Assembly (NCBI GenBank): GCA_951406725.2
Contig: OX597815.1
Span: forward strand, 106,144,001 to 106,208,000
Length of the DNA: 64,000 bases
Origin: Octopus vulgaris
Lineage: Eukaryota
Reading direction: 5' to 3'
Shown here: piece by piece, positions 1,774 through 61,311 of the stretch
Position numbering within the stretch: position 1 is the stretch's first letter
Layout of the letters: each line of letters opens with the position of its first letter
Notes under the pieces: generated by a model
Told to the model about the DNA's origin: nothing
Seen by the model: the letters and a program-made list of their open reading frames with translations, nothing else
The model's database searches: none
Made by a program: the position numbers and the translations under genes

Positions 1774-1970
1774 ACACAGAACTGAAGCTTCATTTTGAAA
1801 TCCTTGATCATCATCTTGTCTATGGCAATGAGTTTTGTGGAAGCAACCCAAGCATTATCATGACTCCTGTTACAGAAAAATGTTTTTTATCAATATTCCT
1901 GGCCCTTCAGAATCTACAGCCAGTCTATCTCGTTGGAACACCTGATGTTGGAAAGAAGGAAACTATTAAG
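1774..1970 (+). CDS. Dynein HC exon: AAA1 start with degenerate Walker A
   Basis: tcag|ac...aag|gtgatt; [50 protein letters not shown]. Confidence 0.9.
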
Positions 1971-4526
1971 GTGATTCTTCACATGATTTCAAGTGTAATT
2001 CTCTTTCCTTTGTTGTTATAGAAATCAGCTGTGTAGTGGCAGGAAAAGTTGAGCGCCACACTAAGCATTTTGTGGTATTTGATATCATCCCTCTACAGTA
2101 TGAGTTCAAATTTTGTTTAGATCAACTTTACTTTTTGCTTTCCAGCATCAAAAGGAATAATTAATTATTTTATGTTGAAGCTAAGTGAATTAATCCTGCA
2201 TACTTTACAACTTTGGTCTTGTTATTAATACCTGTCACCTTGAAATTGATACCTAGCAGACCTTGATCTTATACCAGCTGTAATCCTTCTGTCTTTGCAA
2301 ACATAATGTATATAAATCACATTATACCAGCTGTAATCCTTTCTTTCCAAACAATGTATATAAGACCATATTATCCAGTTTCCTATTAAATTCTCTTTAC
2401 TTCTCCTATTTTCAGAGCCTTGCCAATGTCATTGCTCAATTTTACTATCTGCTGAAATGCAACCCACACTTTGATGCGTCAAGTATTCAAAGAATTATTC
2501 AAGGTTCTTCAATGGTAAACTGTTATATAAAACATTTTCACATTACATCTGTATTGCTTTGAGATTTTATTGCCCATTTGGTCCATTAATTCCTGTTTTT
2601 TATACTCTGACACTAAAAGTCATTAGGTTTCTTATGGCTTTTAACCTTACCTCATCATTCAATTTAATTCACATTTTAAATGTAAGTTTCATCATCATTA
2701 TTATTTAACATCTGTTGTCCATGCTGGCATGGGTTGGACGATGCGACCAGAGCTGGCACCAGACTCTAGTCTGGTTTGGCGTGGTTTCTATGGCTGGATG
2801 CCTTCCTAATGCCAACCACTTTACAGAGTGTGCTGGATGCTTTTACATGACACCGCAGGAGCACTTTTACGTGGCACCGTGTAGGTGCTTTTATGTGGCA
2901 CTGCACGGACGTTTTTACATGATACCATCTTGAATACATGTTTAAATAAAATGGAGATGCAAACATAAAGATATATGAAAGGAAGATTTCTGGAAGTTTT
3001 AATTTACTTAAATTATTATGCGTTCTTTAGATAACAAAGGTTGTTATAATTTTAGGTGTTGTTCAATATTAACTTTATTTAATTACAGGAAGAGGTGGGA
3101 ACTACAATGTTTTGGACTACATTTGATAGACTTGCTTTTGAAATGTTTTGCTTTTTAACAAAACAATTTCATTTTTTTTACAATTTTGCTTCAGCCTAGC
3201 GCCCACACACAATAGCTACACTGAGATGCTACAAACTTTAACGAAAATAATTTTAGTGCAAAAAAGGCTAAAGATGAAGGAGGTTTCCAAGTGGAAGTTG
3301 TGTCAATTTTTTAAAAGAGTAGTGGGATAAATGATTTACCATTTGTTGAGAGATATTTGGTTGCTATTTCTAAGGATTCGCATGATTTGCAGAAGCTGTG
3401 TAGCTAATTGCATAATAAGCAGAAATGTAAAAAAAAATCAAATCTGTAAGGTATCAAATGAATATCAGTCCTGTCAGATGAGTCTGAAATTGTATTGGCT
3501 CTGAATTGTGTGCTTTGTTCAGTCTTAAAGCAATGCCTGCAGTAACATAGTTTGAATTTATGATGAAATTATCAATAATCTACTACTTAAACATCAGAGC
3601 TAACATTATTTCCTTTCTAATTCCTAGGAAGGATGTTGGCTCTGTCTTGCTGATGGAAATAAGCTTTCACATAAATCTTTAGATGTTGTGATGGACCAAG
3701 TTGCTATGATTGTAGATGCTGTCAGAGTAAATAACAATGTGGTAGAAGATATCTTCAGGAAATTGGTAATTAATCAACATAATTTTTTTCTTTCTTTCCT
3801 TCAAAATATTTTTTTTTAAGTTTATTATATATACCCTAGTATTTTGTGATCCTACACAGACAAAAGGTATAGTTGACTGGGCATAAAGAGAGGTGACATG
3901 GAATAAAATACTACAAGAACCTGCTGGTTCTGCCATACTGCTCCATCACAGGTATACATCCTGTCGTCTTTTGTACAGTTTCTCTACACCAAATTTCATT
4001 CATTAAGAATTTGGTTAACCTGTAGTTTCGTGCCCAAGATACTATACTGTTATATCAGTGGTGGTGGTGGTGGTGCTGCTGCTGCTGCTGTTATTATTAT
4101 TATTACTGGTGAGCTAGCAGAATCATTACCATACCAGACAAAATGCTTAGTAGCATTTCTTCTAACTTTACATTCTGAGTTCAAATTCAACTGAAGTCGA
4201 CTTTGCCTTTCATCCTTTCGGGGTCTATAAATTAAGTACCAATGGAGTACTGGGATTGATGTAATTGACTAGATCCCTCCCACAAAATTGCAGGCCTTGT
4301 GCCTTTAGTAGAAAGGATTATTATTATTATTATTATTGAGTGAGAGAGCAGTGCATGTCATCAAAGTGACACTGGGGTAAAATATACGAAGCCCAGTATA
4401 CCCATCATGACTACCTGTCTGATAAGGGTACACCAGGCACATGCATCACAACCATATATGTGCAACATGGTGATCTCATATCAAAATAAACAGTGCATGA
4501 CTTTGCAGATGGGGCCCTTATTATTA

Positions 4527-4567: not shown

Positions 4568-5178
4568 AATTTTAAGGTTGGAAAACATTCTTTCAACTAC
4601 ATCTTGTAATTTCTGAAATGATATTCTGTCTATCTCTTCCGTATTCCAATTTGAAGAAAAATATGAGAAATAAACAATTTGATTAATGTTTCTGCCTATA
4701 AACTAGTTGTGAATAAAGAGAATTATTGTCATAGTTTTTTTTTTTAATTTTCATAATTTCAAATATTTCATTCTGCTATTATTTTCATTTTCATTCAAGA
4801 TTGATATACAAGGTACCTGTGTGTGTATGTGTGTGTGTTTGTGTGTGTGTAATCTCATCATTGCCATGGCTGTTGCTGCCATTTTTCCATCTCCAAAGTT
4901 TTACATTCTCCCTTTCACTGATTTTCTTGTAGACATATAAAGTGAATCCAAGAACTGCTTTCTTTATGACCGCAACATTCTCTGAGGAATCAAACTGGTA
5001 CTCTGCTCGGAACGTTAAATCTGTGTTTCGAACAGTGACACTCCTTAAACCGGATACTTACTATATTTTAAGAGGATATTTTATCTCTGCTGGTTTCAAG
5101 TTTGGCAATATTTTGGCAGGAAAATTACTAGAGATTGTCTCTTTAGCTGAACTTCAACTGTAAGTAAATAACAATGCA

Positions 5179-5216
<38 letters not shown>

Positions 5217-8200: not shown

Positions 8201-11200
8201 AACAAAAATTATTTATGAAATAGTCATGTTAATGATTGTTTGATTGTTCAGGTAATATTTTATTAATATTTTAAAATGAATTCTTCAATTATTTTCTTTA
8301 GCATATCATCAGAATGTCAGATACCCAGTTTTACTTTGTCATCAATGATAGCCACCATAAGACGAGCTCAACAAATTAGAAAAACTCTTGAGGAAAAGTA
8401 TGGAGAGAAACCTAACACAGTACGACCAGAAAGTCAGGTGTCAACATCAACCAGCAAAGGCAAGGATTGTTATATCTTCTCAACTTTTATTTTATATTGA
8501 CTGTGTATTATAATACCATAGAGTGGTATTGATAATATGTGAATAACATCAATATCTATCTTTTATGGGTAGCTATTTTTTACAGATAACTTTTGAAATT
8601 TTAAAACAGCAAAACAACATCTTTGACCCTACAAACTACTAGGCTCTATCATCTCCAGTTTCTTTATTCAATAGTAGAATTTCTGTTAGTGGTTTGCTTT
8701 TTTATTGTCATATATTGCTTGCTCTTGAAATCTTGTCAAGAGCAGTTTTGTTGCACTTTGCATTAAACAAGGCTTTAAATGCCCTTGATAAAAGAACCAA
8801 TAAAATTGCCTGCTGTGAGATCCATGCATCTCTTGTATTAGAAGACCTTAACATGGCATTTCAATATGCATATAAACCAGGTTCTTTTTATACCTATTCT
8901 ATCTACTGTGATGTACCTTAACATTCACATGTATCTTCCTCACTGTTCATTATGTGTATTAATGACTTGCTTCTTCTAACTATACATATGCTCCTACACT
9001 ATCTTTCATTCCTCTTTAGACTTTCATTTACAGCTTAAGTATTTGTTGCTAAACATTCATAATGTATATGAACAGAGACTTTGAAAATGTCTTCTAATAG
9101 CAACATGAAATCTAGTGTCATCTATGTTGTTATATCACCTGTAATAAATTATAGTATTGAATAAAATAAGAATAGAATTTCACCAATTAACTGTTATCAG
9201 GAATGTTTCCAAGTTGCAATGTGTTTGTTTCATGTCAATTTTTTATAAAAGTATAAGTTAGACAAATTCATGTTACTGAGGCTTTGTTCTTCCAGCTAGA
9301 TGCTCTTCCCATCATTAACACTTGCTTGTTTTCAAATCAGGGATTTTTCATTCTATCTGTCTTTGAAAGAACAGAAGTAGCAGACAACTTGTTGACAGAA
9401 AACATCAACAAATATTGCAGTTTGTAACTCAGCACTTTTTTTTACACAAAATACAGAATGTAAACATTCACTCAGACACACAAACATCTGCACATACACA
9501 TGTGCATGCACACACTCTCACACAATATACATACTCATAGGATGGCATATAGCAGAAGTCACTTGCTCAAGATGTTTCACAAGGGAACTGAACCTGAAAC
9601 CATGCATGGAGAAATAAACTTCTTAAACACATAACTGATGGAAATGCAGATAGACACTACTTTCAGATACATCTAACACTCAGAGCTGAACTTCTGTCCC
9701 CTTCTATATAAATGTTATCAATTAAAGGTATCTATGGTCAGACTTATGATGTTATTGTCTTCTCTATTGCAGCAACACCCAGTACCACATCAAGACAGTC
9801 TCAGATCAGTTTAACAATAAAAGAGTCTTCAGAAAATCTTACTAGAGATATAGATCTGTCTACATTACTACAATCTATTGAAGAGACATTATATCCAGCT
9901 TTAGACAATAATGTAAGTATCAACTTGTTTCCTCTCAATAATTGTCTGCAGCTGTTGGTTCACTATCAAGCTGTGCCTGCTCTTTGTTTTCTCTGTTGCT
10001 ACAACATCCTAGTACTTGAACTTATTGACGCTCTCTCTTTCTCTCTCTCTCTCTCTCTTCCTTTCTCTCTCTCTCTCTTCCTTTCTCTCTCTCTCTCTCT
10101 CTCTTCCTTTCTCTCTCTCTCTCTCTTCCTTTCTCTCTCCTTCCTCTCTCTTTCTTTGTGTGTGTGTGTGTGCATACATGCATATCTGTCATTTGCCGCT
10201 AGCTTTTTTCAATGTATTTATTAAACCTCCTTTAGACTGTCTCCCAACTCATCTTCAAGATTCCATACTGAATATTCTACCTTATATTTCTTCTACACAA
10301 TTCGTCCTCTGGAGCTTCATTCTCTCTTATATTTTCATATCTACCAATCACCTTTTCAATACCAACCTACATGGGGCTACCTTTGGCTCTTTGTTACCAA
10401 CCTACTTTAAATTGTCTGTTTTAAAATAGTCATATTTATCTTAAAATCTTCATTAAAATTTATTGTTACATGTATGATGGTTTCTGACATAGGTACAAGG
10501 CACAGGAGTTTTTGAAAGGGATGTACTTGATCAGAGTGACTCCAGTATTTCATTTTATCAGCCCTTGAAGAATAAAAAGCAAATCTGAAAAGTATTAAAT
10601 CTAACACTATGAATTCTGCTAATCTAATAATTAACATAAAATTTCCAGAGGTTTTGGGAACCTTTTGTTAAATTGTGTTCCAAACAACAGATTTATGATG
10701 TTATAGCTATTTTACTATCTCTACCATCTAAATTTTGGGTCATTTGGAAAATTAATCAAAACACATAAATAGTGTATTATTGTTAGAAGAAAAATCATAA
10801 GAGGGGTTAAATTGAATATTAAATCCCAGTAGTTATCCTAATTATTCATGGCTCTTCCTGTTTAAAAGGGTCTGATAACACTATAAGATTTCCATCCCAG
10901 ATTAATGAGAAGATACATCAAGATTACAAAAGATACATAAGAAATTAAAGCTATATTTAATTTACTTTTGATATAGTTTCTACCAAGAATAGTAATGAAA
11001 TTTTTATTCCTTAACCTTTTAGCATTTAAACAAGTCATATCCAGCCCAAATATTCTACCTGTTAGATGTTTGAATTTACCAGACAACTCTACAATGGCAT
11101 TGTAAAATTAAACAATCACATCATTGAAATCTTGAAGCTTAGAGATAATGTTTGATTAATTTAAAACAAAGTGAATAAATTAGCATTACATTTGACAGTG

Positions 11201-12941
11201 TAATCTGAATGTTAAAAGGTTAAATAAAACTTATCAACTACTTTTTTTACATATAGATCTTGTTAATCTTCACTCCACAATTTCATGTTTTATCTTCTTC
11301 ACCTTTATTTCCACTACAGATTTTAAATTTATTATTTATTCTTTGTTCTTCATTTCAGATATATTTCCTCTCTGTTTTGCAATAATTTACATTAAAACAG
11401 AGCATTTCAAAATAAAATGCATGCATCAAAGAACACTCACAGATACACCTCTTAACATGTCTGCTTATATTGAGAATTTTTTTTTGGTATTGATGAGTGA
11501 TATTCATACTTTGCCCAAATATATTACTAACTTGTGTGCATGCACACATTTTAAACATATAAAGTCTTACTATAAAAGCAGCTCTTAGTATAAAGAGAAC
11601 ATTTTATCTATGAAGTTTATTTGCATTTCCATTCCTCATAGAACTATATACTTCAAAGACTATTCATCACATTTTAATGATTATTTCCAGGTATTGATTA
11701 AATTCCAAGACCTAGTGAGTGCATGCATATATGGAACTTCTTGTATACCAAACAAATCTTCTTTGAAGTCCTTAGATTTAGAAAACGTTATCTCTGAAAA
11801 AGTAAATCAAAAGAATTTGACAGTAAATGAAGAATGGCTTGCAAAATGTTTACAGTTAAATAATCTCTCCAATAACTTTGATGGTAATTTGTGCATATCA
11901 GCAACTTCTTTTTTTTAAACATTTAACTTATTTTCATTTCATTTCAAATCTAAAATGGATCTTTTCCTTCACATAGACATTAAATTCTGTTTTCAAAATA
12001 ACATTATTTTTTAAAAATAACATTAACCTTTAAACATGTTATTTTCAAACCAGTATTTTAAGCTTTTGTCACCTGTCTGTTAAATCTAGACATAAGATTT
12101 TTTTAATTACAATTCACCATATATATGTATGAATGTGTGGTGAGGTGGGTAGACAGGCTTTAGCCATATAACTATGCTTGCATCTGCTTATATTTTATAA
12201 AGTGGAGATGATTTTATGGTTTTGTCAAGAGGAAGGGACAGAGCTCATGATATTCAAAGACCTTCCAATATTGGCAAAATCAGTACTGTTTATGTTTGGC
12301 TTAATCCTTTAGCATTTAAACTGGTCATATCCAGCACAAATATTCTACTTGATTTATGTTCAAACTGGCCAGATCCAGCCTCTCACACCTACCCTAGAAT
12401 GTCATTCTAAAAATATACAATCACATCATTCAAATCTCAAAACTTCATGATAATGCATGATTAATTCAAAACAATGTGTATAAATAAGCATTACATTTGA
12501 CTGAAAAATGTGGGTGCTCTCTCAGACATTTACTTTTCCATATTTTATCAAATAATTTCATTTGACATATGCAACATCCACATACAAGTACATTTTTTCA
12601 TCATTTCATTTCTTCAGAACACCATTCCTCATACAGATTCTATTTCTATATAGGTATTTTAATGGTTGGCCCTCCTGGAAGTGGTAAGACAACATGTCTC
12701 CAAACTTTGGTTGAAGCTTTCAATGAAAGCCAGCAAATAAAAAGTATTTCCAAGAATACTATGAAAACATCACATTCTAACAATTATAAACTTACCAGAA
12801 TCAATCCAATGTCATTTGAAAGTTTGGAACCAATATTTGGTTGGATGGATTTGAATTCACAATTCATTGATGGATTTTTTATGTCATCTTTCAAGAAAGC
12901 AAGCAAGGTAGGATGTATATACCTGTGTTTCTACTTTATAA

Positions 12942-20653: not shown

Positions 20654-23600
20654 TATATATATATACATATATGCACACGCACACACACTTTGAGGAGTTG
20701 GGTTAAAGAGGCATTATCTATGATCATTACAGGCCCTCCAAAACAAGAGAGCTTGCTGTGATTATGTTCTATTTAAATTCTTGCAGGTCAACACTTGTAA
20801 GGAAGACATAAGCCAAAAGAAGATTCCAGGAGGCTGATGTTCTCAGGGGAGAAAGAGAACTGCGTGCAGTGATGAGTGGGTTGGATGCATCAAAAGTAAC
20901 TAAAAGTGAAGAGACAAGTGGACCTAAGAGACCAGCTAGCTGTGAAGGAAAAAGGCTATTATAGTAGTGATAGAAAAGACAGAGAGAGAAAGAGTACAGT
21001 TTATCTGTGGATCAGATGCTGGAGCATGTCTATTATTGACTAAATGCCAATCCTAGACCACATTCTGAGACATGCCACTTTTGTAGATGTAGTCCAGGAT
21101 GTTTATGTGTGTAGCAAAAAGACATCCTGGACTGCTGCCAATTATCAACATGTATTTTCATCATCACCACTTAACATCCGTTTTTCATGCTGGGTTGGAC
21201 AGTTTGACAGCAGCAGGCTCCGTGTTTGTTTTGGCATGGTCTCTACAGTTGAAAAGCCTCTCTGACATCAACCACTTTACAGTGTGTACTGGGTGCTTTT
21301 ATGCAGCACCAGCATGGGTGTGTTTACATGGCACTAGTACAGGTGCGTTTTACATGGCATCACCCATGAGCCTGCAATATTTGGAATGCTCAGCTGAAAA
21401 GGGATGCAAGGACAATCATGATTTTACTTATTTTGACGTGTCTTCTCAAACACAGCAAACCACTAGGAGTCTCAGTCCCCTGTCATCCCCTCTGTGAGGT
21501 CCAACATCTGAAGATTTTTCTCACCACCTCATCCTACGTCTCCTTGGATCTACTCCTACCACAGGTTCCCTTCACAATTAGAGATCATCACTTCTTGATG
21601 CAGCTGTCCTCATCCATATGCATCACATGACCACACCAGTACAATCTTCTTTCTTGGACACTACATCTTATGCCTGGTATACCCAGTTTTTCTCTCAAAT
21701 CGCTTACACTCTGTCGTATATGCACACTGACATTATCCATCCAGTGGAGCATACTGGCTTTATTTCTTTCAAGCCTTCACATATTCTCAGCACCTATCTC
21801 TCTGCCATGTAGTATAGCTGTCTATACACAGGCATCATACAATCTGCCTTTCACTCTGAGGGAGAGGCCCTTCATTACTAACAGTGGTAGTAACTCTCTC
21901 AACTTCACCCAGACTATTGTTATTCAAGCAGCTATGCTTTCAAAACAACCTCCACCTCTAACTTGGTCACCTAAATAATGAAAACTTGTCTGTTACTTCT
22001 AAGGATCCCCTCTGACATTTAAGGGAATCTGCTTTTTTTTTTGTATATTCCTGGTGTTTAGTGTACCTGCATATCTGCCACATGTAAAGACTATTTTCTC
22101 TGTTAGTCTTCCAATGATACCACTGCACCTTTTATGTGTCTATAGCTTGCACTGGGTAACACTTTTTCTGCATATTAAACCCGACCATCTCCCTAGAGGG
22201 ATCTGTGATCTGTATCATATAAAATAAATTTTCATAAGAATTCTTGTCTGTTTTTCTGTACAGATCCAACTGAAAAATGGAGATATAGTTCCAATGAATG
22301 GCAATGTGAAAACCTTCATAGAAACAGACTCCATAGACTCAGCATCACCAATGACTATAACTAAATTGGTACGGTTTGTATCACATTAATCAGTATAGAG
22401 AATTGATTAGTTGATAAAGTAGAGGATTATCTGCTTAAAAGATCATGAATTCAAATCAACTACAGGTATTTTGTGGTGTTTCTTGACAAAACATTTTATC
22501 CTACATTGTCTTGGTTCACCTATCTTTTGGAAATTAAATATATATCTGATTAATGATTGATTAGCATATTAACCAAGCAAAGATTTATTTCTCATCAATG
22601 CATCTCTGAGTTGTTGCAATATTCTTGCAGAACTGGTAAAGCAGCAAACTAACTATTCCTTGAAGTATTTAGATACATTCATTTACATTTGAATCCTGCA
22701 CTTTTCATCTCACATATTTCAGTAACCAGTAAAACATTAGGCTAAGTATTATTCTCTCCTACCAAGTTTCTGATTTTGTACCTACTGTTGAAATCAATAT
22801 TTGTGTGAATTATTTTTCAGGGTATGATCTACTTTAGTGGCCTTGTTACATGGGAAGTCTTGACCAAGTCATGGATCAAAGCAAAGAAGCATAAAAATCC
22901 TCAAGTATGTAATCTTTAGTAGCAACTCTTTGTAATGTAAGAAGATTGGTTTCATGAATTAAAATTGCATTTTTCAAAAGCAAGAAACTCCTCTCCTCCT
23001 TTCCTCTTCATCATAATCTTGCGAGCCATCACTGAGGAGAAGACTGGCTGTCTATGGAAAATCTTATGTGCTAATGATCTAGTTCTCATAACTAAATCTA
23101 GAGTGGGATTAGAGAAGAAATTCCAGGCATGGAAGCTAAACCTGGAATTGAGGGGCCTTAAAGTAAACCTGAAAAAGACAAAGGTTTTAGTAAGTAAGAA
23201 AGAACACAGGACTCCTGTATCATCAAAGGAATGGCCTTACTCAATATATAGAAAGAGGGTAGGTATAAATTCCATATGCTGTATTCAATGTAAACCATGG
23301 GAACATAAGCAATGCAGTGGAATCATTGGCAGACTGTCAGACAGTGTAAGATTCATATGTGATAGACACACTGGAGGTGTATTTACGAATACACTGGAAA
23401 TTGAAATTGAGGATTCGTTAGAAATAGTTGAAAGATTTTGTTATCTAGGAGATGTAATTAGCAAGTGAGATGGATGCTATGAAAGTATAGTAGCTAGAGT
23501 AGGAACTGGTTGGGTAAAGTTCAGGGAGCTATTACCACAGTTGATAACAAAGGGTTTTTCCCTAAGATTGAAGGGCAGATTGTATGATCCTTGTGTAAGA

Positions 23601-25262: not shown

Positions 25263-26975
25263 ATCATCTTCATAATTTTACATTTGCCTTCATTAGGTTT
25301 GTTTGCGGGTTTGAGGGAAGTTATGAATATATGTTTCAATATATTTGACATTATCAGCACTGTACAGTTTAACTGAATTTGTAGATCAATAAAGTTTAAA
25401 AGAAAAAGAGTTATGTCTATTTTTGGCCAAGAGTAATTTGCATCATTAAAAATTAAGAGAGCTAAGGGAAATAACTCAATATGTAAACTTGAAATAAACT
25501 CGACACAAATTTTTAAAAATAAGATGTGTGTATGTAAGTGTAGTGTTTGTCTGTGAGTGTGTGAGAGAGATAATAAAAAGAATACACTATGAGAAGGCAA
25601 ACACTGCTATGGAAAGAAATAGATACACTAAACACTAATACTCAATGTATCACATGACCAATACACTAGAAAAGGAAATGCAACGTCAACTAGTTTGTTA
25701 TATGTAGTAGTAGTAGTAGTAGCAGCAGCAGCAGCAGATATTGATTTCTGATATTGGTTTCAATTTTGGCACATGGCCAGCCATTTCAGGGAAAGGGGCT
25801 AAATCAATTAGATCAACCCCAGTGCTCAACTGGTACTTATTTTATCAACCCCAAAAGGATGAAAGACAAAGTCAACCTCAGTGAAATTCAATTCAGAATG
25901 TAAAAACAAACAAAATACTTCCAAGCATTTTGCCCAGTGTGCTAACAATTCTACCAGCTTGCCGCTGTATTGATTTCTAATATTGACACTTTTGTGGAGC
26001 GAGGTTAATTCTACCCTAGTACATGACTGGTATCATTGTATCAACCACATTTTATATTAATGTTACTGATGTCATGCTTCTTTTGTTTGTTTTTTTAGAT
26101 TAATGGATCCAAGAATGGATATGATATTGCAGAGGTAAGTGTACCTTGGTTATAGTCTGTGATTTTAAAGAGTGATTGTAGCTAACTGTGCTATATAAAT
26201 TGAAATTATGTTATTGCTTTATACTCTTAGACCCAGCATATTTTTCTCTTTGCATCAATATATTTAGTGGATGATTAAATTGATAAAGCACTAGACAATA
26301 AATCAAGAGTTTAACAGTTTATTCCCTGTCAATGATGCTGATGAGAATCTGTGACTAACAACTTTAATAAACTTCTGTTAGCAGTGCCTAACTAGTTTTA
26401 TGTAATTACTACAGAATCCGTATCTCCACACCACTAATACTGATGAGTGTTTCATTGCTCTGCAAAGTGACAAGAATATTTGTAATTCACTCCTTAGTAA
26501 GAAATAGCTAACAACTTCATATAATTATATAAAAGACAAAAGACATCCACTTCAAGCAATTACTAACAGTCCTTTCAGTATAGTCTTAAAGGGCTGTTCA
26601 TCCTATCAGACTATATGTTAATATAGACGTTAAAATTTGGATTTTAATTTTGTTTCTTAATAATTTTCTCATCAAAAGAAATAAAAAACAAGATTTAGAA
26701 AGAAAAACATTTTCCTTCAATTTATTCTGTCTTTCATCAGTCTTAGGTCAATAAAATAAAGTCCCAGTCAAACACTGGAATTGATATAGTTGATTGATCC
26801 GTCACCCCCAAAACATCTTGATTTCATCCCTTTGGTATTAATAAAGTAAGTAACAACCATATACTGAGATAGAGTTATCGACTATACTCCTTATATAATT
26901 TGTCATTTTGTGCAGATATAAAAAGTCCTCATCATTTTTCTTCTCCCTTCTGTTCATACTTCCTCATTCTATTGC

Positions 26976-28442: not shown

Positions 28443-29086
28443 CATATATACAACGGGCTTCTTTCAGTTTCCGTCTACCAAATCCACTCACAAGGCTTTG
28501 GTCAGCCCGAGGCTATAGTAGAAGATACTTGCCCAAGGTGCCACGCAGTGGGACTGAACCCGGAACCATGTGGTTGGTAAGCAAGCTACTTACCACACAG
28601 CCACTCCTGCGCCTTATTCATATTTTCTTCACAGACCTCAAAGTCTAACAGCTCAATTTTCACAACTGTCACATCAAGCTACCTTATCTAGAACAACTTG
28701 TAAAGGTCATGGAAACCACACTCTCAATTTAAATAAAAAATGAAATAATATTAGAAATGATGATTCCTTTTCAGAGTCTTTAATGATTTTTTCAGTTCTA
28801 AAAGCTTTGCTGATTCAAGCAGACAACTCTGCTAACTTCAAAAACTCAGGCCTATAACTTTACTGACTAACTTTCATTTGAAATCTCTTACAGTTCACTT
28901 GAATAAAGATTGCATTTCTTATATCCTGGTCTTGATTTATTATTTATTCTTCCAAATACAAGAGAAATAAATTATATTTCTTTTATTGTTAGATTCTAAT
29001 GCAATGTTATCAGAACAGTATGGACCCAGTCATTCAGTACTTCAAGACAGAAATGAAGTGAGATATTTGTAATATTTTTTTAATAC

Positions 29087-47400: not shown

Positions 47401-50400
47401 TCCTTACATGTTCTGACAGGTAAATATTTTATTTAATTCTACCCTTTTTCAATAGTCATAAAAATAACATATATACAAAATATTTGGAACATTAAAGGGA
47501 GCAAGTTGTCTCTGAAAATTGAACTTAGAACTTTGTGGCAACTAATTATGGTTTAAGAGTCAGCTAAGTTTAATGAGATTCAATAATAGATTTACTGTGG
47601 CCTTTCTCAATATTATTTTTTTTAAATATATAGGCACAGGTGTGGTTGTGTGGTAAGAAGTTTGCATCACAATCACTTGGTTTCATGTTCAGTCCCACTG
47701 TGTGGACCTTGGACAAATGTCTTCAGCAATAGCCTCAGGCCAAACAAAGCCTTGTGAGTGGATATGGTAGACTGAAACTGAAAGTAACCCATCGTGTGTG
47801 TGTGTGTCTGTCTGTCTGTGTCTGTGTGTCTTTGTGTCCGTGTTTGTCCCCCACCACTGCTTGACAATCAGTGTTGATGTGTTTACATCCCTGAAACTTT
47901 GCAGTTTGACAAAAGAGACTAATAGAATAAGTACCAGACTTTATAAAAATATAAGTACTGAGGTTGATTCATTCGAGTAAAAATACTTCAAGGCAGTGTC
48001 CCAGCACAACTGCCGTCCAATGACTGAAACAAGATGAAAGATAAAAGATATATATATTACAATTTGTAAACAATAGCATTGTTGGTTACAGGTTTCCAAT
48101 GGACAAATCACGGATCCACTATTATGGCAAGATTGACATTGTCATGTCTATAACTCAATGTAGAGGGTGTCATTCTTGCAAAGGACTTCATTTGAGGAGT
48201 AGTTTTTTTACTTTGCTTTTTATTTCATTAATATTTACATCCTTTATCAATATACGTCGTTGAAAGATATACACACACAAGTGTGTGTGTGTGTGTGTAT
48301 GTGTACAAATTCATGTAGATACAATGGGCTCCCATTTAGTTTCCTAAATCCTCTCACAAGATATTGATCAACCCAAAGCTATAGTGAAAGTTACCAGTGA
48401 TAACCAGTAAGATTGAACTTTGAACCATATGGTTGTGAAGCAACACAACACTACACACCACTACCTGCATCCATGTAAAAAGGAAGTACATAGTAATTCA
48501 ATTTTGTGTACTCGGTGTAAAAAATAAGTACACAAAAAAAAAATGACCGCAAAGCAGAACTTGATATGTGATCAACGTATATGAGTAGTTCACGATAAGA
48601 GTACCAATAAAATAAAGTTATAAACTGCTTGGTAGGTACAGCCAACATGGTTACCTAACTACCTAGTTGATTAAGCAATCTAATTGGTGCTTCAGATGGT
48701 TGTAGTGATAGTATAGTAGCTAAATTATAGAAAGGGTGGAAGAAGCTTTGAGAACTGTTGTCTCTGTTGGTAGCAAAGTGTTCCTCTCTTCATGTAGAAA
48801 GCAAGTTGTATGAGCCAGCAAGAAAATCTCTGTGCAACCACTCAACCTGCCAGACATATCAAGCAATTTTTGCTCATATCACATTTTACTATCTTAAAAA
48901 AGTACAACTTAGATCATGTAGTCCTAGATACACAATAACTCAACAAAGCACAGAATAATCATAACTGGAGCACCTTTGATCATAGGTCTGGCAATTCTCA
49001 GCTGATGTGGGACTAACTAAACAACAAGCAAACTGTATTATTTGTAAGAAGTTTAATGCTACATGTTAGTGAGATATGGATTATTATGCATAGAAGATCT
49101 GTGAAGGTTAGAGAGAAATAAGATGAATATAATTTAATGGCTCTGTAGTGTTAACCTACTTGAAAAGCAGTGCACAATTAAACTGAGAGAGTAATTGGGT
49201 ATCAAAGCTCTTAGTTGAGAGATGACTACCATGGATGGTTATGTGGTGTGTATCAGATGATGGGTGCTGAGTAATAAAGTATTGTTTCCAGTGGAAGATA
49301 CTTGAACTGAATAAAAGATAAGAGAGATAGGGAAGAGTGAATAATTACTGTTGTCAGTAACATGATGTTGATCAGAGATTTCAGTGTGGTTTTGATCATT
49401 GACCATTAGGGTTGAGAATCCAAAGCGACACCAGATTCAACAGCTGACCTCCTGTTTAAGAGATTTTTGAAGCTCTACAAAAGCACATCATCAAAGAAAA
49501 TAGATGTGCGCATGAAAAATTACAACTAAACATGAAGATAAAGTTTTGAATGAATCTCTGAAGTATGATAATTCACACAAAATGGTATTTATTCTGAAGT
49601 ATCATTTTGTGCATGAACAATTTGTTTGTTTGCTTAGATTGTGATTACAATAAGTTTCTCATTTAAACAATATTGTGTCAGACTGCTTCTATTATTTTAT
49701 GCAAAATTTCTATCACAGGGTTTTTCTATAAAATTGCCTAATACTCAAAACCCTGTGTGCATGCACACACCCACCCACACAGCAAGTATTTATTAATCCT
49801 AAGTTCTACTATTTATTGTATTATATCACCTGTACAGAAGTCACCTCCTCTCAGTCAGTAGTGTAGTCAGTGACATAGTTGACATTTATATGTTAACATG
49901 TGAAATGACCAACACTACAACTATACAGATGGACTGGTTTACTGGCAATGATCTGTTTGAAGTTCTGAAAACTGCAGTCAAACAAGCTGGCAGTTTGAAC
50001 ACTCCTGTTGCCTTCATACTTAAAGTAAGTTTATTATTGCAAAATTAGGAAAATGATACATTATTATTGTTGCTGTTATTATCTCAACCATTGTTATTAC
50101 AGCTGTCTCTTTATTTTTGTTGTTATTGTTTCTACTATGTTGATGCTCAGTAGTTTATAATTTATATCATATCATATCACTTCACTGACAGCTTGAAGAA
50201 TTCTGATGCTAAATTAATATAAACGTTTCAAATTTACCGGCAAAATTAGTTTAAGACCGTATCATTATAATTTTGTAGCAAAAATGAGCAACAAGAGCAA
50301 GATACATATTTGTACTTTGTGCCAAAACCTTTATTCTTCATAACAGCTGAACAATGCCCCGGCATTGAATTCGCTAAGTGAGTACAAAATTCTATGGGAA

Positions 50401-56400: not shown

Positions 56401-59400
56401 ACTTCCACATTAAAAACAAGATATGAATGGCATGTAACAGTTAGTGGTATTATGAAAGTCAAATAAAAACATTGACATTACACAATAATAATGATGATTT
56501 CGTTTCAGGAACCGAATTATTAAATGCCTGACAAATATTCATAAATTCATGTTTAAAGAATATAACAAAGCACCTTGGACTGGAAACCTTGCCTCACATA
56601 CTGAAATTGTACAAGTAGAATCTTCAGATTGCAAGACAGATCCAGTAAAAGTATTTAATGAAACTGTCGATAATTTACCATATACTCAAAGGCTACTTCT
56701 AGATCATATTGGGTAATTTTTCTTATAATTTATAGTTCTATTTTACGATTACTTGTTTGCATAACTTTGGTATATCAGTGGAGGCACCGTTATGATTGTA
56801 TAATTTGTCTTCATCTTACCATCATGTTCTTTAATGTTTCCTGGAGATTATTGAAGTCTAATTCTGTGTATTCATGTTGTCCCACCATTATCTCTTCTTT
56901 TGGAGATACCAAATGGTTTCACTGCTAATCTCTTTTCATTCTGTACATTATAGATTATAGACATTTTGATTTCACAGAAATCCTACTCTACTCTATTTCA
57001 TATTGTTAACTATTTCTTCTTTTGTTTACTTTGCTATATTCTACCATGAATTGTGTCTTGTAAGATGGCCTTTGTAAAAAAGATTGGATGATCTGGCGAT
57101 AAGAGTAGCTCAGTTATTTCAGTTTTTGCTTCATTGATGAGTGAATATATACCTCCAGGGGACCAATTACTTGTAAGATCTTTCAACAAAATTCATTTCA
57201 GGGTCTATGATATATAGGCTGATAGCACCTTATTTCTACAGCTTTGGTTTCTCTTCACCGTTCTGCTGTGATGACCCATTTTTCACCACTATTAAAATAT
57301 TTAACTGTTTCACAGTCATAGCTAACAGTATCATTAGTTACTGAGGATTCACCAATGCATATGCCATCATGAATACAATACTATGTTCCTAACAGGATTA
57401 TTTATGTCTCAACAACCCTGTCTTTCTGTAAATGGGTATCACAGTCTAATGCTGTAAGCACTACAATTTACTGTGCAATTCCATTAGATTTCAATAAATT
57501 CATATTTTAACAAATGTTTCTGGAATAGGATGCAAGCCTATTATAGATTGACAGATCTGGTACCTATTTTCCAATGAAATGATCAGTGACAAAACTTGAA
57601 CTTGCCTTTTGTGTCAGGGATCTCAGCATAATGTCAGCAACTGGATACCAACAATTTTGTTACCAGATTTTTTGTTGGAACACTCTGCCTTGAAAATAAT
57701 AATGAAGAATTTAGTAAAATAACTTTGCCATTAATAAGCTGGTGTTTGAAACATGAAATTTTGATGAAGGGTTTTAATTTATATCAGTTTAAAACAGAAA
57801 GTTTGTATCATAGAACCTGGGACAATCTCAGGTAGATTGGTATCAAAAGAGTTAAGTTACCAACTAATTGCTAAAATATGTTAGAATTACCAACAAAACA
57901 CTAAAACATGTTACACTCATTAACTAAACACAAATAATTGTTACACTTACAGTGCAAACACTATACTAATATATTACACTTAACACTTTGATACTAATAC
58001 ATAGTGTGCCTACTCAACTAGATATTAATAAATATATTACATTTGCTAAGGTTTATGAATCAGCTCCTCACATGTGAAATCTATGCTACCTCATCACAGC
58101 AAATTTTTTACATAACTGAAATTATATTTTGTTTGTAAAATAGTATTAGACACAGGTGTGGCTGTGTAGGTATAAGTTTGCTTCTCAACCATAAGGTTTC
58201 AGGATCAGTCCCACTGCACAGCACCTTGAGCAAGTGTCTTCTATGTCCTTGGCTGACCAAAGCCTTGTGAGTGGATTTGGTGGACAGAAACTGAAAGAAG
58301 CCTGTTGTATATGTGTTTGCATGCATGTGTGTATGAGTGTTGGTGTCTCCTTGTCTTAACACTGCATGATAATTGTAAATGAGCATCACCATTCTTCATT
58401 TCCAACCTTCTGTAAAAACATACCTGGTCATGGTGAAATATTTACCTTATTTGGAAATAGGTGAGGGTTTGGTAACAGGAAGGGCATCTAGTTGTAGAAT
58501 ATCTGCCTCTACAAATTTCATCCAACCCAGGCAAGCATGGAAAGGTGGATGCTACAACAATGATGATGATAATGATGATATTACTGTTATTCTGTTGTAT
58601 CTTGAGCAATACACTTAACTCTTTCTCTTGTTTGACTGAATTAAGAAAAATAGGCTCTACTTCTTAAAACAGCTTTAAAAAAAGTTGGGTTTTTTTAATG
58701 ATGTTTAGTTCAAGTCATCCCTAATCAAACAGGAATATGGAATTCAAAAGCATTCTAGCTGTGACTTTCCATCATTTTTTTCCCCGCTCTAGATGTTATT
58801 GTGTCCTAGAATAGCTTTCGAAAGAAATTTAGCCAAAGGTTTTAACAAGTTGAGCAACACTTTGATGCTTTTTCTTTGACTTTTAAAACTTTTTAAAAAA
58901 TCTAATGTACTTCATACTGACAACTATTTTGTTTTGATATGATGCTCTAGATATATACTAGTATATTTCATATAACATGGTTAATAAGGGTTAATGACAA
59001 CTCCAAAATATTATCAGCGACTCTTGTCTGTCTATGCAGAATGAATACTTTTACTTTTGAAACAAAGTTAGAATAATAATCATGATTCCAGAATTTAGGG
59101 TCACTGCTATCACCTCAGATTTTAGAGTCACTACCATCATTCCAGAGTTTAGAGCCCTTTTGTCACTCCACAGTTTATTACCAGGTCATTGTTACTTTGA
59201 ATTAGTCGAGAACATTCTAAACACTATATATATGTTCATAATATAAATTGTTTAAAGAAAGCCAGATTGTCTTATAATTTCAAAATGTCTAATTTGTTCT
59301 TTTCTATTTTCTTTGAACTACAGCATAAGACTGAGAGAACAAAAACAAGCTATTAAAATACATTCATATTTATTTTATGTGTAAAATAAAGAAATGTAAA

Positions 59401-60172
59401 CATTTTAATGAAATAATTTCATTAATTTTGTTTTATATTTTCGTTTTCATTCAATCTTCAGTTTATATTTTTACCCATAAAATTCCTTATAATTCAAATA
59501 TTAATATTAATATGAATTTATAGCAAACTTAACATTCCTTATGATTAAAATATTTTATGTTATATTATTTCCACTTGATTAAGCTTTGTTAAAATTACTT
59601 CAAATGAAACTAACTATATAAAAAATTGCTTTTGCTTAGGCTACAACAAGAAGTATCTTCTTCCTCAACTAATCAAGCAAATTTCATATCTACAAAGACT
59701 TATGAACAGCTACTTCACTGTTTTCAATACCTCATTAATTTGAAAAATAATGAACAGAAAGAAAAAATGGCAAAAATCAAGTAAGTTAAAATGTAAATAA
59801 ATGTTGCTGTTGTGGTTGTGCCACTGCTTGTTGTTGTTTTTAGTCTGTAGTCAACCCTGATTGAGCAGACCTTGATCTAAAACATTCTAGATATCATCAT
59901 TTCATGTTTGCATTTTATCAGAGGATATGTAGTCAAATGCGTCTTTTTTGTAATGACAGGGTGTGAATTGAGCCAGATTTCAATTATATTTAAACTACAT
60001 TAAGTAACCACATAGAAGCTCAATCTTATTTAAATGAGGTGCCAAAGATTCTAGTAAGAATCAAAACTTTTTTACCTCTAGTTACTAATCAAATACTCCC
60101 CATGATATGTTTTTATTCAGAGATTAGACATCTTTACATACACACATATATCCTGCACACTTTCTCTTACAT

Positions 60173-60247: not shown

Positions 60248-60348
60248 GTTCCCACTTCTGTCATTTTATCTCCCCTTTTATCAACTTGGTCTTTCCCCAT
60301 CATACCATTCATGCTGTTTTTATCTCCTTACCAATAGTCATTGTGTAG

Positions 60349-60399
<51 letters not shown>

Positions 60400-61311
60400 T
60401 CTCACCCTCTATTTACTCTCTCCTCTGTCACCCTTTCATTCTCTTTCATCATTCCCTAATTCTTTCTATTTGCTGAGGATGAGACAATCCTCTTGTGATA
60501 AAGAATGAATAGAGACAACATAAGGTAGGAAAGACTTTTTAGTTTTGCCAAGGACAAGGCTACCTCTTTAGTTTAAGTGCTTCAGTAAAATTCACCTAGT
60601 ACACCCACTGAAGTGGCTGGCAAACAGAGACAGCATAAAGAGGACACTTTAGTTTTGCCAAGGATATGTGAACTTGAGTGTTGTTGCCATAATGAAGTAC
60701 ACTTCATAAAATAGTTGATGATAGAAAAGGCATCCAGCCAGAGGATACTTGCCAAAAATAGAACATATGAGCAAGGTGTGATCCCCATCCCATTTAGGAA
60801 GACGTCAACTCCAAATAAGAACTAACAAGGTCTGTGACAACCTTTCTAACCCATCCCAACATACATGTGTGCACAAGTACATTGTGTGTGTGTGAGAGAG
60901 AGAAAGGATTGATTAAATATTACATAGTATTTTCCATAATTACTTTCTTTGAATATATTCTTAAAATCCAAATCCATCAAATTAGCTGCTTATTGTATGG
61001 TGTCTAATGTACAAGTCATATAATCTTTCTACTTACTCTTTCATTATGAACTAGTAAGACAATTACGAAATTGAAAGACACCAGAGAAAGATTGCAAAAT
61101 GTGACAAAAGTTGTGAAGTTCAAAACGGCAGAATACAACACTGCTAAGATTAAATCCGAGGAATATCTTGAAGAAATCATACACAAAGCAACCCAAGTTG
61201 AAAGCTTGAAGACACAAATTGGACAGAACTTAGCAATCAAAGCTATTCTAGACAACCACCAGTTTACCAACTTTCTTGACCAAGCAGACACTAAAGAACT
61301 CTTGACAAATG
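1774..61311 (+). CDS. Divergent axonemal dynein heavy chain (DNAH5/DNAH8-like), partial multi-exon gene covering AAA1-AAA4 and start of stalk; continues beyond both window ends
   Basis: 32 hand-assembled exons with canonical-type splice sites (one GC donor) join into one open frame of about 1476 codons. Dynein motifs occur in the right order: [92 protein letters not shown], coiled-coil. Confidence 0.93.
2416..2514 (+). CDS. Dynein HC exon (AAA1)
   Basis: ttcag|...atg|gtaaac; [33 protein letters not shown] aligns to [27 protein letters not shown]. Confidence 0.88.
3628..3765 (+). CDS. Dynein HC exon: AAA1 degenerate Walker B
   Basis: cctag|...ttg|gtaatt; [25 protein letters not shown] vs canonical [25 protein letters not shown]. 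Confidence 0.88.
4108..4320 (+). mobile_element. tRNA-derived SINE, family B (other copies near 25755-25965, 27600-27810, 46860-47150, 54560-54800 on -)
   Basis: Recurrent ggtgagct.gcagaatc...ttctgagttcaaatt (B-box)...gcctttcatcc...aagtacca...(att)n tail. Confidence 0.7.
4933..5159 (+). CDS. Dynein HC exon (AAA1 sensor I region)
   Basis: tgtag|...ct|gtaagt; [10 protein letters not shown]...[15 protein letters not shown]...SAGF...LAGK...AELQL. Confidence 0.9.
6100..7410. mobile_element. RTE-clade LINE fragment: + strand RT C-terminus and 3'UTR (6283-7410) joined head-to-head with a minus-strand 3' tail (6100-6280)
   Basis: [38 protein letters not shown], with stops and frameshifts; (CAT)n tail on the left. 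Confidence 0.8.
8302..8459 (+). CDS. Dynein HC exon (AAA1 small domain), probable GC donor
   Basis: tttag|c...aaag|gcaagg; [27 protein letters not shown]; phase 1 end matches next acceptor. Confidence 0.78.
8605..9110 (+). mobile_element. Highly decayed CR1/Jockey-like LINE RT relic
   Basis: Traces of [21 protein letters not shown] motifs in order; heavily disrupted. Confidence 0.45.
9773..9912 (+). CDS. Dynein HC exon
   Basis: ctctattgcag|...aat|gtaagt; ..[20 protein letters not shown]. Confidence 0.82.
10031..10172. repeat. (TC)n/(TG)n compound microsatellite
   Basis: Direct inspection. Confidence 0.9.
11011..11223. mobile_element. TTAA-flanked piggyBac-type MITE (second truncated copy at 12301-12500)
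   Basis: ttaa-ccttttagcatt...aatgttaaaagg-ttaa terminal inverted repeat; internal sequence shared with the 12301 copy. Confidence 0.7.
11691..11883 (+). CDS. Dynein HC exon
   Basis: ttccag|...g|gtaatt; FQDLVSAC...[13 protein letters not shown]. Confidence 0.88.
12654..12907 (+). CDS. Dynein HC exon: AAA2 intact Walker A
   Basis: atag|gt...aag|gtagga; [16 protein letters not shown]...RINPMS..PIFGWMD..FIDGFF..FKKA. Confidence 0.93.
13614..13700 (+). CDS. Dynein HC exon: AAA2 Walker B region
   Basis: ttcag|...cag|gtatgt; [25 protein letters not shown] (cf. [24 protein letters not shown]). Confidence 0.88.
15478..18233 (-). mobile_element. Young non-autonomous LTR retrotransposon (CsRn1-like Gypsy derivative)
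   Basis: Two near-identical LTRs of about 606-610 bp (15478-16083, 17624-18233), TG...CA ends, CATG TSD (15474-77, 18234-37), tRNA-Trp PBS, PPT GGAGGGGAG next to 16084, 1.54-kb interior with no recognisable pol. Confidence 0.92.
17602..17622 (-). promoter_or_regulatory. Primer-binding site complementary to the tRNA-Trp 3' end
   Basis: Minus strand TGGTGACCCCCCGACGTGATT vs tRNA-Trp 3' end AUCACGUCGGGGUCACCA (two extra C), 1 nt from the LTR. Confidence 0.85.
20075..20470 (-). mobile_element. tRNA-derived SINE family A, 5'-truncated, with internal (TA)/(CA) microsatellite
   Basis: Homologous to the 28183-28613 copy. Confidence 0.7.
20770..21130 (-). mobile_element. Decayed CR1/Jockey-like LINE 3' end
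   Basis: Minus-strand LQHLIHR...[10 protein letters not shown]...SQLAGL resembles the LQPL.HRR.VASL.LFYRYY C-terminal motif. Confidence 0.5.
21160..22200 (-). mobile_element. RTE LINE 3' fragment
   Basis: Reverse complement similar to 6500-7250 ([11 protein letters not shown]); CAT-rich tail at left. Confidence 0.8.
22264..22368 (+). CDS. Dynein HC exon: AAA2 with Arg finger replaced by Lys
   Basis: tacag|...ttg|gtacgg; [11 protein letters not shown]...[18 protein letters not shown] (cf. ASPATVSR). Confidence 0.9.
22821..22904 (+). CDS. Dynein HC exon
   Basis: ttttcag|...caa|gtatgt; [19 protein letters not shown]. Confidence 0.9.
22995..23975 (+). mobile_element. RTE LINE fragment
   Basis: [26 protein letters not shown]...[11 protein letters not shown]...FCYLGD. 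Confidence 0.82.
24791..25295. repeat. Long inverted repeat (arms 24791-25057 and 25150-25295, 92-bp spacer)
   Basis: Core of about 86 bp with 2 mismatches, then (TA)n and a further matching block of about 35 bp; left arm carries a SINE-tail insert in its TA run. Confidence 0.9.
26099..26134 (+). CDS. Candidate symmetric 36-nt micro-exon ([12 protein letters not shown])
   Basis: Long T tract + ag acceptor, gag|gtaagt donor, phase 0-0; not needed to keep the frame. Confidence 0.5.
28183..28613 (-). mobile_element. Full-length tRNA-derived SINE family A with internal microsatellite
   Basis: Minus strand GGCGCAGGAGTGGCTGTGTGGTAAG (A box)...GGGTTCAGTCCC (B box)...central (TA/TG)n...(GTAAAAGA)n tail; near-identical copy at 32166-32615. 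Confidence 0.82.
28993..29057 (+). CDS. Dynein HC exon
   Basis: gttag|...aa|gtgaga; [22 protein letters not shown]; phase fits both neighbours. Confidence 0.78.
29580..30435 (+). mobile_element. RTE LINE 3' end with 73-bp tandem duplication (29991-30148) and (GAT)n tail
   Basis: Homology to other RTE copies; repeat units start at 29991, 30064 and 30137. Confidence 0.8.
30572..30778 (+). CDS. Dynein HC exon (AAA2 small domain)
   Basis: gacag|...ct|gtaagt; [27 protein letters not shown]. Confidence 0.9.
32166..32615 (-). mobile_element. tRNA-derived SINE family A
   Basis: High identity to 28183-28613; long internal (TA)n. Confidence 0.82.
33345..33425 (+). CDS. Dynein HC exon
   Basis: tttcag|...aa|gtcggt; [24 protein letters not shown]. 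Confidence 0.85.
34656..34722 (+). CDS. Dynein HC exon
   Basis: tctag|...aca|gtaagt; [22 protein letters not shown]; phases fit. Confidence 0.78.
34969..35083 (+). CDS. Dynein HC exon: AAA3 intact Walker A
   Basis: ttcag|...g|gtaagt; [16 protein letters not shown]. Confidence 0.92.
36036..36134 (+). CDS. Dynein HC exon (AAA3)
   Basis: tttag|...g|gtaagg; [27 protein letters not shown]. Confidence 0.82.
37355..37917 (+). mobile_element. RTE-type 3'UTR fragment with degenerate internal tandem repeats and (GAT)n tail
   Basis: Repeated caccatt.gagcgtgatcgttaccag / gtgcc.gtggcac.taaaag units; shared terminal block gttggcgttaggaagggcatccagc. Confidence 0.75.
38443..38543 (+). CDS. Dynein HC exon: AAA3 Walker B
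   Basis: catag|...gag|gtaatc; [25 protein letters not shown]. Confidence 0.92.
39013..39062. repeat. Perfect 50-bp spacerless palindrome
   Basis: aaaaaattaatgtcaacagatcaat|attgatctgttgacattaattttttt; extends imperfectly to about 38994-39082. Confidence 0.9.
39133..39273 (+). CDS. Dynein HC exon (AAA3)
   Basis: ttcag|...ttg|gtaaaa; [13 protein letters not shown]...IAEMTHP...NQRLL. Confidence 0.9.
40400..41165 (-). mobile_element. RTE LINE fragment with internal deletion
   Basis: Minus-strand [43 protein letters not shown]. Confidence 0.82.
41812..41886 (+). CDS. Dynein HC exon
   Basis: ttgcag|...gag|gtagat; [16 protein letters not shown]. Confidence 0.88.
42872..43042 (+). CDS. Dynein HC exon (AAA3 lid)
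   Basis: ttacag|...aag|gttggt; [19 protein letters not shown] (cf. PAKFHYVFNLRDLSRVWQ). Confidence 0.88.
43884..44036 (+). CDS. Dynein HC exon
   Basis: cctag|...gat|gtatgt; GL...[23 protein letters not shown]. Confidence 0.86.
44408..45264 (-). mobile_element. Internally deleted Tc1-like DNA transposon
   Basis: TA|CAGTACTGTGCAAAAGT...ACTTTTGCACGGTACTG|TA; inner direct repeat near 44611; transposase relic [29 protein letters not shown]. Confidence 0.88.
45698..45805 (+). CDS. Dynein HC exon
   Basis: gtttag|...aat|gtaaga; [19 protein letters not shown]...; phase 0-0, strong splice sites. Confidence 0.75.
45960..46235 (+). mobile_element. 3' fragment of an R4/Dong-like (RLE) non-LTR retrotransposon
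   Basis: [43 protein letters not shown] matches the recalled R4-type C-terminus (VIGALG...IQK.ALLGTAHILRKVL). Confidence 0.6.
46237..46665 (-). mobile_element. RTE-type 3'UTR fragment with about 4 tandem ~65-bp repeats
   Basis: ggtgc.tttta.(a/g)tgccacc.gcac..gagccagtcagg..g.actggcatc.ac repeated over 46393-46660. Confidence 0.75.
47253..47419 (+). CDS. Dynein HC exon (AAA4 start)
   Basis: cttcag|...ag|gtaaat; [26 protein letters not shown]. Confidence 0.87.
47630..48050 (+). mobile_element. tRNA-derived SINE family A (older copy); related heads near 29135 and 58150
   Basis: ggcacaggtgtggttgtgtggtaag...gttcagtccc...gtgagtggat.tggtagac.gaaactgaaag. Confidence 0.72.
49838..50024 (+). CDS. Dynein HC exon: AAA4 with Walker A lost
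   Basis: tacag|...aaa|gtaagt; [20 protein letters not shown]...[24 protein letters not shown]. Confidence 0.85.
50183..51631 (-). mobile_element. Defective Tc1 (DD34E-type) transposon with long TIRs
   Basis: 50188-50258 is the inverted match of 51411-51482; right end ...TTTTCACCAGTG|TA; transposase relic [46 protein letters not shown], with frameshifts. Confidence 0.88.
52071..52178 (+). CDS. Dynein HC exon (AAA4)
   Basis: cacag|...cag|gtttgg; [17 protein letters not shown]...LYSTEEL. Confidence 0.87.
53187..53326 (+). CDS. Dynein HC exon (AAA4)
   Basis: tttag|...ag|gtaaac; [18 protein letters not shown]. Confidence 0.9.
55154..55279 (+). CDS. Dynein HC exon (AAA4)
   Basis: ctcag|...ag|gtaaca; [21 protein letters not shown]. 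Confidence 0.9.
56509..56712 (+). CDS. Dynein HC exon (AAA4 small domain plus insertion)
   Basis: tttcag|...gg|gtaatt; [17 protein letters not shown]...; open, phase 2-2. Confidence 0.82.
56800..57600 (-). mobile_element. Old RTE/BovB-like LINE 3' relic
   Basis: Minus-strand [16 protein letters not shown] resembles K.ILQGTV.G.RRRG; boundaries approximate. Confidence 0.45.
59640..59780 (+). CDS. Dynein HC exon (pre-stalk)
   Basis: cttag|...aa|gtaagt; [21 protein letters not shown] (cf. VTPKSYL.FI..YK.IY..K). Confidence 0.86.
60176..60245. repeat. (CT)n microsatellite
   Basis: Direct inspection; a second run lies at about 60352-60388. Confidence 0.92.
61055..61311 (+). CDS. Dynein HC exon: stalk coiled-coil 1
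   Basis: actag|...g|gtaata; [15 protein letters not shown]...[18 protein letters not shown] (cf. GLEKLKEASESV...LKEVTMKAQAAEKVKAEV). Confidence 0.87.

Follow-up and report, generated by a model that had tools for sequence, protein, structure and literature searches.

DNAHX, a subfamily of non-motile dynein heavy chains derived from DNAH5/8, was described from a cryo-EM study of sea-urchin sperm dynein (Chai et al., bioRxiv 2025, PMC11785096). According to the text of that preprint, the sea-urchin protein was obtained by salt extraction from mature sperm axonemes, holds ATP trapped at AAA1, is seen in the pre-powerstroke state only, and forms a heterodimer, in part as the autoinhibited phi form, with a heavy chain that is not named there, the authors leaning to DNAH6/7 as the partner. 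Its traits are a diagnostic insert within the small domain of AAA4 (AAA4S) and further insertions in the stalk and MTBD, and a link with external fertilisation is suggested (PMC11785096). The main text of the preprint does not mention octopus or other cephalopods, and a literature search for 'DNAHX', with most subscription journals outside its scope, returned that preprint alone. Class 12 (DHC12) has been described as having a class-3 (DNAH5/8)-like tail and an abnormal stalk, and as bona fide rather than 'ghost genes' (PMC5100056). DNHD1, as summarised in the preprint, has a poorly conserved AAA1 and is reported to be important for flagella and nodal cilia (PMC11785096).

Here we describe a dynein heavy chain gene that crosses a 64,000-nucleotide stretch of Octopus vulgaris DNA (the window, C2:106144001-106208000; positions are counted from its first base, negative numbers lying upstream). 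A preprint has already reported a conserved dynein, derived from DNAH5/8, that is motor-dead, and the octopus copy is a new and unusually eroded example of it.

Results

The window holds exons 36-67 of a 94-exon gene on the plus strand (1774..61311), which cover AAA1 through the beginning of the stalk. The homology-guided model was built on the window plus 200 kb of DNA on each side, with the O. sinensis orthologue XP_036354691 as guide, and runs from window -85,250 to +130,148, overhanging the window by ~85 kb upstream and ~66 kb downstream and encoding 5,027 residues plus a stop. Exons 36-43 lie at 1774-1970, 2416-2514, 3628-3765, 4933-5159, 8302-8459, 9773-9912, 11691-11883 and 12654-12907; exons 44-51 at 13614-13700, 22264-22368, 22821-22904, 26099-26134, 28993-29057, 30572-30778, 33345-33425 and 34656-34722; exons 52-59 at 34969-35083, 36036-36134, 38443-38543, 39133-39273, 41812-41886, 42872-43042, 43884-44036 and 45698-45805; and exons 60-67 at 47253-47419, 49838-50024, 52071-52178, 53187-53326 (the acceptor at 53187 was placed by hand, following O. 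bimaculoides), 55154-55279, 56509-56712, 59640-59780 and 61055-61311. These 32 exons comprise 1,477 codons, in close agreement with the initial annotation of this DNA, which had read an uninterrupted frame of about 1476 codons over 31-32 exons. That annotation had also held that stops or frameshifts elsewhere in the gene would mark a pseudogene; across the 5,027 codons of the 94-exon model there are none.

The predicted introns are of GT-AG type in 91 cases and GC-AG in two, at window 8459 (after exon 40) and -77636. Two spliced contigs, each from one of four runs and each without mismatches, match the model. Contig X13 (172 bases, from a probable RNA run) joins 1970 to 2416 and 2514 to 3628 at the predicted GT-AG junctions and so runs from the Walker A exon through the one after it into the Walker B exon, and contig X14 joins exon 40 to exon 41 across the GC donor. 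Both are low-depth contigs from a single study with no tissue label, their RNA status is guessed, and read matches in the run set that gave X14 are dominated by intronic repeats. A search of sequencing runs listed none with the gene that is recorded as RNA, which says nothing either way, and the other three runs of the X13 set gave no cover of the exons, which is likewise uninformative. The genomic copy number is one for each of two exons tested. The public O. vulgaris protein agrees with the window gene exon by exon, and the gene is under-annotated in this model (CAI9717935.1), since it stops at 4,268 aa and skips the two exons at 11691-12907, which carry the Walker A of AAA2. Within the introns, a 192-codon open frame on the minus strand (464-1042, before exon 36) looks retrotransposon gag-like by eye, and an 8.5-kb intron contains a 99% identical direct repeat (15491-15790 and 17639-17938, 2,148 bases apart) that probably reflects either recent local duplication or paired terminal repeats.

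Orthologues are full-length in two other Octopus species and present as a long open model in Argonauta, with whole-protein identities of 99.7% (O. sinensis), 96% (O. bimaculoides) and 66% (Argonauta). The relatives next after the octopods are long 'DNAH5/8-like' proteins from bivalves, frogs and fishes, and a search from one of these uncovers a family spanning sponge and Trichoplax to amphibians. Its member P0159 is XP_041462850.1 of Lytechinus variegatus, which carries the V2221, S2322 and K2393 named in the preprint and is referred to below as the DNAHX type.

We placed the octopus protein in this family by two trees. Under LG+C20 (24 of 67 rows; 1,296 columns, every second well-filled column; support as SH-aLRT only), the window protein and Argonauta fall inside mollusc DNAHX (96), lophotrochozoan DNAHX (100) and DNAHX as a whole (100), and DNAHX is sister to DNAH5 (98). 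A tree constrained to group the octopods with only DNAH5 is rejected by the AU test (p-AU 8.3e-8). FastTree (67 rows x 2,668 columns) also recovers the octopods in DNAHX (0.942), near its base with a local support of 0.0, and gives beta-tailed orphans, not DNAH5, as the sister of DNAHX. This basal position and the attraction of the orphans indicate that long branches matter here. The octopod stem measures 1.39 changes per site, about five times longer than other mollusc tips (0.12-0.27), and is compositionally deviant, while only short branches (0.1 and 0.29) separate the octopods from each other; because this branch is so long and deviant, function in octopods may have drifted from the sea-urchin role. 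Over trimmed motor columns the identity of the octopus protein to the 30 DNAHX rows is 25-35%, whereas none of the 33 other rows exceeds 23%, and its tail scores highest, among non-DNAHX tails, with the four DNAH5 rows (summed BLAST scores).

As judged from its sequence, the window gene is the octopus orthologue of DNAHX, the non-motile DNAH5/8-derived subfamily. The trees, the frame and the splicing bear out the proposal in the initial annotation of an intact DNAH5/8-derived dynein. Its suggestion of a new kind of dynein does not survive, since the octopus chain is the orthologue of DNAHX, which has already been described; clean orthology to a characterised degenerate dynein, the finding said there to remove the novelty, is what we observe (PMC11785096). 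Other searches add little. A word-index search with the first exon gave no match among proteins of up to 2,000 aa, single exons give weak dynein matches to PDB sequences that are uninformative on class, and a PDB search with a sea-urchin DNAHX-type protein returned no DNAHX-length chain among the best 60 of 83. An 89-aa fragment, P0002, is 59% identical to exon 39 and has a similarly eroded sensor I, which suggests an orthologue from another cephalopod lineage.

The initial annotation had singled out five motifs acting at AAA1, and all five lie where it had located them. Walker A reads GTPDVGKK (1935..1958; this and all features below are on the plus strand) and retains the G-x4-G-K pattern and the lysine; the Thr after the lysine is Lys, and its Val position is also Val in the DNAHX type. 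This Thr-to-Val swap within Walker A is shared by 46 of 77 non-cephalopod DNAHX-type records in addition to the type protein. Walker B reads CLADGNK in place of the canonical CFDEFNR (3643..3663), with Asp changed to Ala and the catalytic Glu, retained in Argonauta, to Asp. In the sensor I loop, MTATFSEES for TMNPGYAGR (4966..4992), Asn is replaced by Thr, the loop being degenerate DNAHX-wide. Sensor II reads FTLSSM (8330..8347), with Arg changed to Ser and a DNAHX-type insertion following, and the AAA2 arginine finger that acts on AAA1 reads ASPMTITK (22342..22365), with Arg changed to Lys. Thus six of the seven scored residues are changed (the Thr after the lysine, Walker B Asp and Glu, sensor I Asn, sensor II Arg and the arginine finger), and the claim that all AAA1 catalytic residues are replaced was overstated, the Walker A lysine being the one retained.

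We then compared these positions across the 77 records (78 less P0188, in which AAA1 was not located; isoforms and close species are included). Part of them stand in the FastTree tree, which has 30 DNAHX rows, and the remainder were assigned by a search-score gap. The lysine is retained in 76 records, the post-lysine Thr in 69, Walker B Asp in 62, the arginine finger in 44 (17 of the others have Lys there), Walker B Glu in 40, sensor I Asn in 35 and sensor II Arg in 0, the two sensor counts being approximate because their columns adjoin indels. Sensor II Arg is thus missing from 77 of 77 records, sensor I Asn from 42 and the arginine finger from 33, and the idea of five independent events in octopus fails because the same losses are widespread among non-cephalopod relatives. 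The loss of six residues in the three Octopus proteins is equalled by four of the 77 records, two from sponges and two from acoels; Argonauta has lost four of seven, the DNAHX type one, and 48 of the 77 records between one and three. On these alignments, the octopus AAA1 losses appear largely inherited from DNAHX, and its AAA1 is among the most eroded in the set.

The other nucleotide sites differ in their fate. The P-loops of AAA2 (GPPGSGKT, 12668..12691) and AAA3 (GPKGSGKT, 35029..35052) are intact, and FIEDIN (38484-38501) aligns as the AAA3 Walker B. At AAA4 the 11 residues in the P-loop position (49848..49880) no longer form a P-loop, a more eroded state than in other DNAHX (GAVGSHL), where the GK is already missing.

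The chain also carries the insertions of DNAHX, counted here relative to DNAH5, and the inserted octopus and type sequences can be aligned. The AAA4S insertion (PS2i of DNAHX; 56531..59640, ~53 residues, mostly within exon 56509-56712) measures +53 in octopus and +52 in the type, as against 0 in canonical dyneins and -1 and -3 in two beta-tailed orphans; by this alignment the diagnostic feature of DNAHX is present in octopus. The stalk CC1 exon at 61055..61311 begins the DNAHX CC1 insertion (+45; type +44; canonical 0), and the insertion after AAA1 sensor II is +48 (type +76; canonical 0). Those in the MTBD (pre-H3 and H5) and CC2 are +9, +29 and +19, versus +39, +37 and +23 in the type, the first being strongly reduced, and smaller ones lie in AAA2 (+16; type +17) and near the C terminus (+22; type +26). 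The whole chain is 5,027 aa long, compared with 5,272 aa in the type, ~5,200-5,500 in most DNAHX and ~4,500 in ordinary heavy chains.

Purifying selection on octopus DNAHX persists. In a neutral simulation of the 202 protein differences from O. bimaculoides, runs acquired a mean of 11.8 stops and 0 of 200 were stop-free, and the observed differences are milder than in every neutral run (BLOSUM +0.27 versus -0.29 +/- 0.12). Argonauta differs at 74 of 466 DNAHX-conserved columns (16%) versus 507 of 1,309 variable ones (39%). These tests work on protein differences and column conservation, not on codon-level dN/dS. The stop-free frame, the conservative substitutions and the constraint at family-conserved sites argue against a pseudogene and, with the spliced contigs, support the view in the initial annotation that the AAA1 changes are not pseudogene decay.

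Two other divergent dyneins are encoded in the octopus genome. At C17:59.31-59.53 Mb on the minus strand (L085-L087, L111-L130), a many-exon gene has an AAA1 P-loop that looks degenerate and matches the beta-tailed orphans P0114 and P0118 (Xenopus, Ambystoma), whose bits sum to 1,097 and 904, with none of the other 16 queries above 253; it is probably Kollmar's class 13 and a candidate partner of DNAHX. The other, at C27:34.22-34.36 Mb on the plus strand (L081-L084, L090-L110), combines an ordinary stalk with a changed AAA1 P-loop, matches inner-arm-like dyneins best and may be the DNHD1/class-11 gene; atlas look-ups with two of its exons gave generic dynein clusters only. A PF12774 search of the genome yields ~16 further strong AAA1 loci (counted by eye), as expected if the genome has its complete complement of ordinary dyneins. 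A PF12774 match 430 kb upstream (C2:105,715,128-105,715,256, plus strand) was considered as a nearby paralogue and rejected, being a lone 38-codon fragment in 70 kb. Further away, C2:101,272,852-101,273,277 (minus strand) holds a lone 122-codon dynein AAA1 fragment in 50 kb. Both isolated fragments are likely pseudogene scraps.

Discussion

The octopus has a single DNAHX orthologue that most likely serves as a non-motile partner, pairing with another dynein of the axoneme and keeping it inhibited. Hydrolysis and motility in dyneins require the Walker B Glu of AAA1 and the arginine finger, and with both lost, AAA1 hydrolysis and the powerstroke would stop. Lacking the Walker B Asp and sensor II Arg as well, the octopus site is not expected to hydrolyse ATP, and with the post-lysine Thr gone along with the Walker B Asp it would bind Mg-ATP poorly. 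By analogy, octopus DNAHX is probably motor-dead. Some weak ATP binding or turnover at AAA1 may persist, given the retained Walker A lysine and, in Argonauta, the retained catalytic Glu. On the model of the sea-urchin structure, the C-terminal cap would be held in place by the AAA4S insertion, and the stalk, being kinked, would fail to bind microtubules. Dimerisation and the uptake of accessory chains would still proceed through the DNAH5-like tail, and the intact AAA2 and AAA3 P-loops could bind nucleotide structurally. The non-motile partner would then inhibit the other dynein while the cilium or sperm tail assembles, with transport, or a 'phi template', as the model set out in the preprint's text (PMC11785096).

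It is possible, if doubtful, that the protein is half of a passive class 12 and class 13 heterodimer fixed in the axoneme at outer-arm positions, and damps or shapes the beat instead of being recycled as a transport template. Kollmar (2016) proposed such a heterodimer there from the DNAH5-like and beta-like tails (PMC5100056), the separate C17 dynein that best matches the beta-tailed amphibian orphans could supply the second chain, and the salt extract that yielded sea-urchin DNAHX came from mature sperm axonemes (PMC11785096). Against this, the text of the preprint has no such chain among its mass-spectrometry heavy chains and favours DNAH6/7 (PMC11785096). Taken further, DNAHX would be class 12 and its partner in dynein-X the class-13 chain, the two forming, from sponges to amphibians, a second and wholly motor-dead 'ghost outer arm' pair; octopods would keep both, with AAA1 stripped in a burst to a nucleotide-indifferent scaffold, for stored, internally fertilising sperm or for somatic cilia. 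We offer this scheme as a speculation. In either case, the co-occurring class-13-like gene is a concrete partner candidate where the cryo-EM study named none.

The gene could also be DNAHX by descent and yet an octopod relic under relaxed selection, its sea-urchin job gone and heading for loss as in amniotes. The long octopod stem, an AAA1 short of six residues where 48 of the 77 other records have lost one to three, the further erosion of the AAA4 P-loop, the shortened MTBD insertion and the low depth of the spliced contigs all point that way. We nevertheless regard a relic as improbable in view of the 5,027 codons free of stops and frameshifts, the full-length proteins in two Octopus species and the long open Argonauta model, the conservative substitutions and remaining constraint at family-conserved sites, and the short branches within octopods.

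A slow yet active motor or ATPase is very unlikely. The retained Walker A lysine, the conservative E to D and R to K changes and the intact AAA2 and AAA3 P-loops would suit one, but dynein enzymology needs the AAA1 Walker B Glu and the arginine finger, and the stalk bears the DNAHX insertions. Moreover, the less degenerate sea-urchin DNAHX holds unhydrolysed ATP, with no post-powerstroke class in the preprint's text (PMC11785096). We give next to no credence to a cephalopod-specific dead DNAH5/8 duplicate or a DNHD1 orthologue: public annotations do read 'dynein heavy chain 5/8-like' and the tail is DNAH5-like, but exclusive placement with DNAH5 fails the AU test, several large insertions match DNAHX in length, and the degenerate C27 dynein, with its ordinary stalk and inner-arm-like best matches, is the better DNHD1 candidate.

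O. vulgaris is described as an internal fertiliser (PMC11753710). The association with external fertilisation, a correlate and not a definition of DNAHX, does not hold in this species, and DNAHX-type records also come from pulmonate and land snails, salamanders and bdelloid rotifers. The snails and salamanders we take to be internal fertilisers. By adding cephalopods, and an internal fertiliser, to the range of DNAHX, the octopus gene weakens the link. Bdelloid rotifers, which are not known to have males, retain long DNAHX-type proteins (P0190-P0192), and this hints at a role for DNAHX in somatic cilia and not in sperm alone.

How does the octopus chain compare with the described dyneins? DNHD1 (class 11) has, by the preprint's account, a separate origin and insertions at other sites (PMC11785096); a DNHD1 identity for the window gene is unlikely from its positive placement in DNAHX, in trees built without a DNHD1 sequence. 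With the DNAH5 and DNAH8 outer-arm chains the octopus protein shares a sister-clade relationship, domain order and tail type; motor identity is ~22-23%, and DNAH5/8 have invariant AAA1 motifs and lack the DNAHX insertions. Kollmar's class 12 (2016), as described in the text of that study, shares the DNAH5/8-like tail, the abnormal stalk and microtubule-binding region and the holozoan and metazoan range, ATPase sites not being part of his analysis (PMC5100056). DNAHX is probably this class 12, matched by descriptions and not by his sequences. The closest counterpart is the DNAHX type XP_041462850 of Lytechinus variegatus, which shares with the octopus protein the clade sister to DNAH5/8, a length above 5,000 aa, the Walker A Thr-to-Val swap, degenerate sensors I and II, PS2i in AAA4S and the CC1, MTBD and CC2 insertions. 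The octopus motor is 32% identical to the type over trimmed columns, whereas that of abalone is 57% identical, and the type retains the Walker A KT, the Walker B DE, the sensor I Asn and the arginine finger where octopus lacks six of the seven scored residues. With those residues gone and the AAA4S and stalk insertions kept, octopus DNAHX is a natural test of whether the role of the family needs ATP binding at AAA1 at all.
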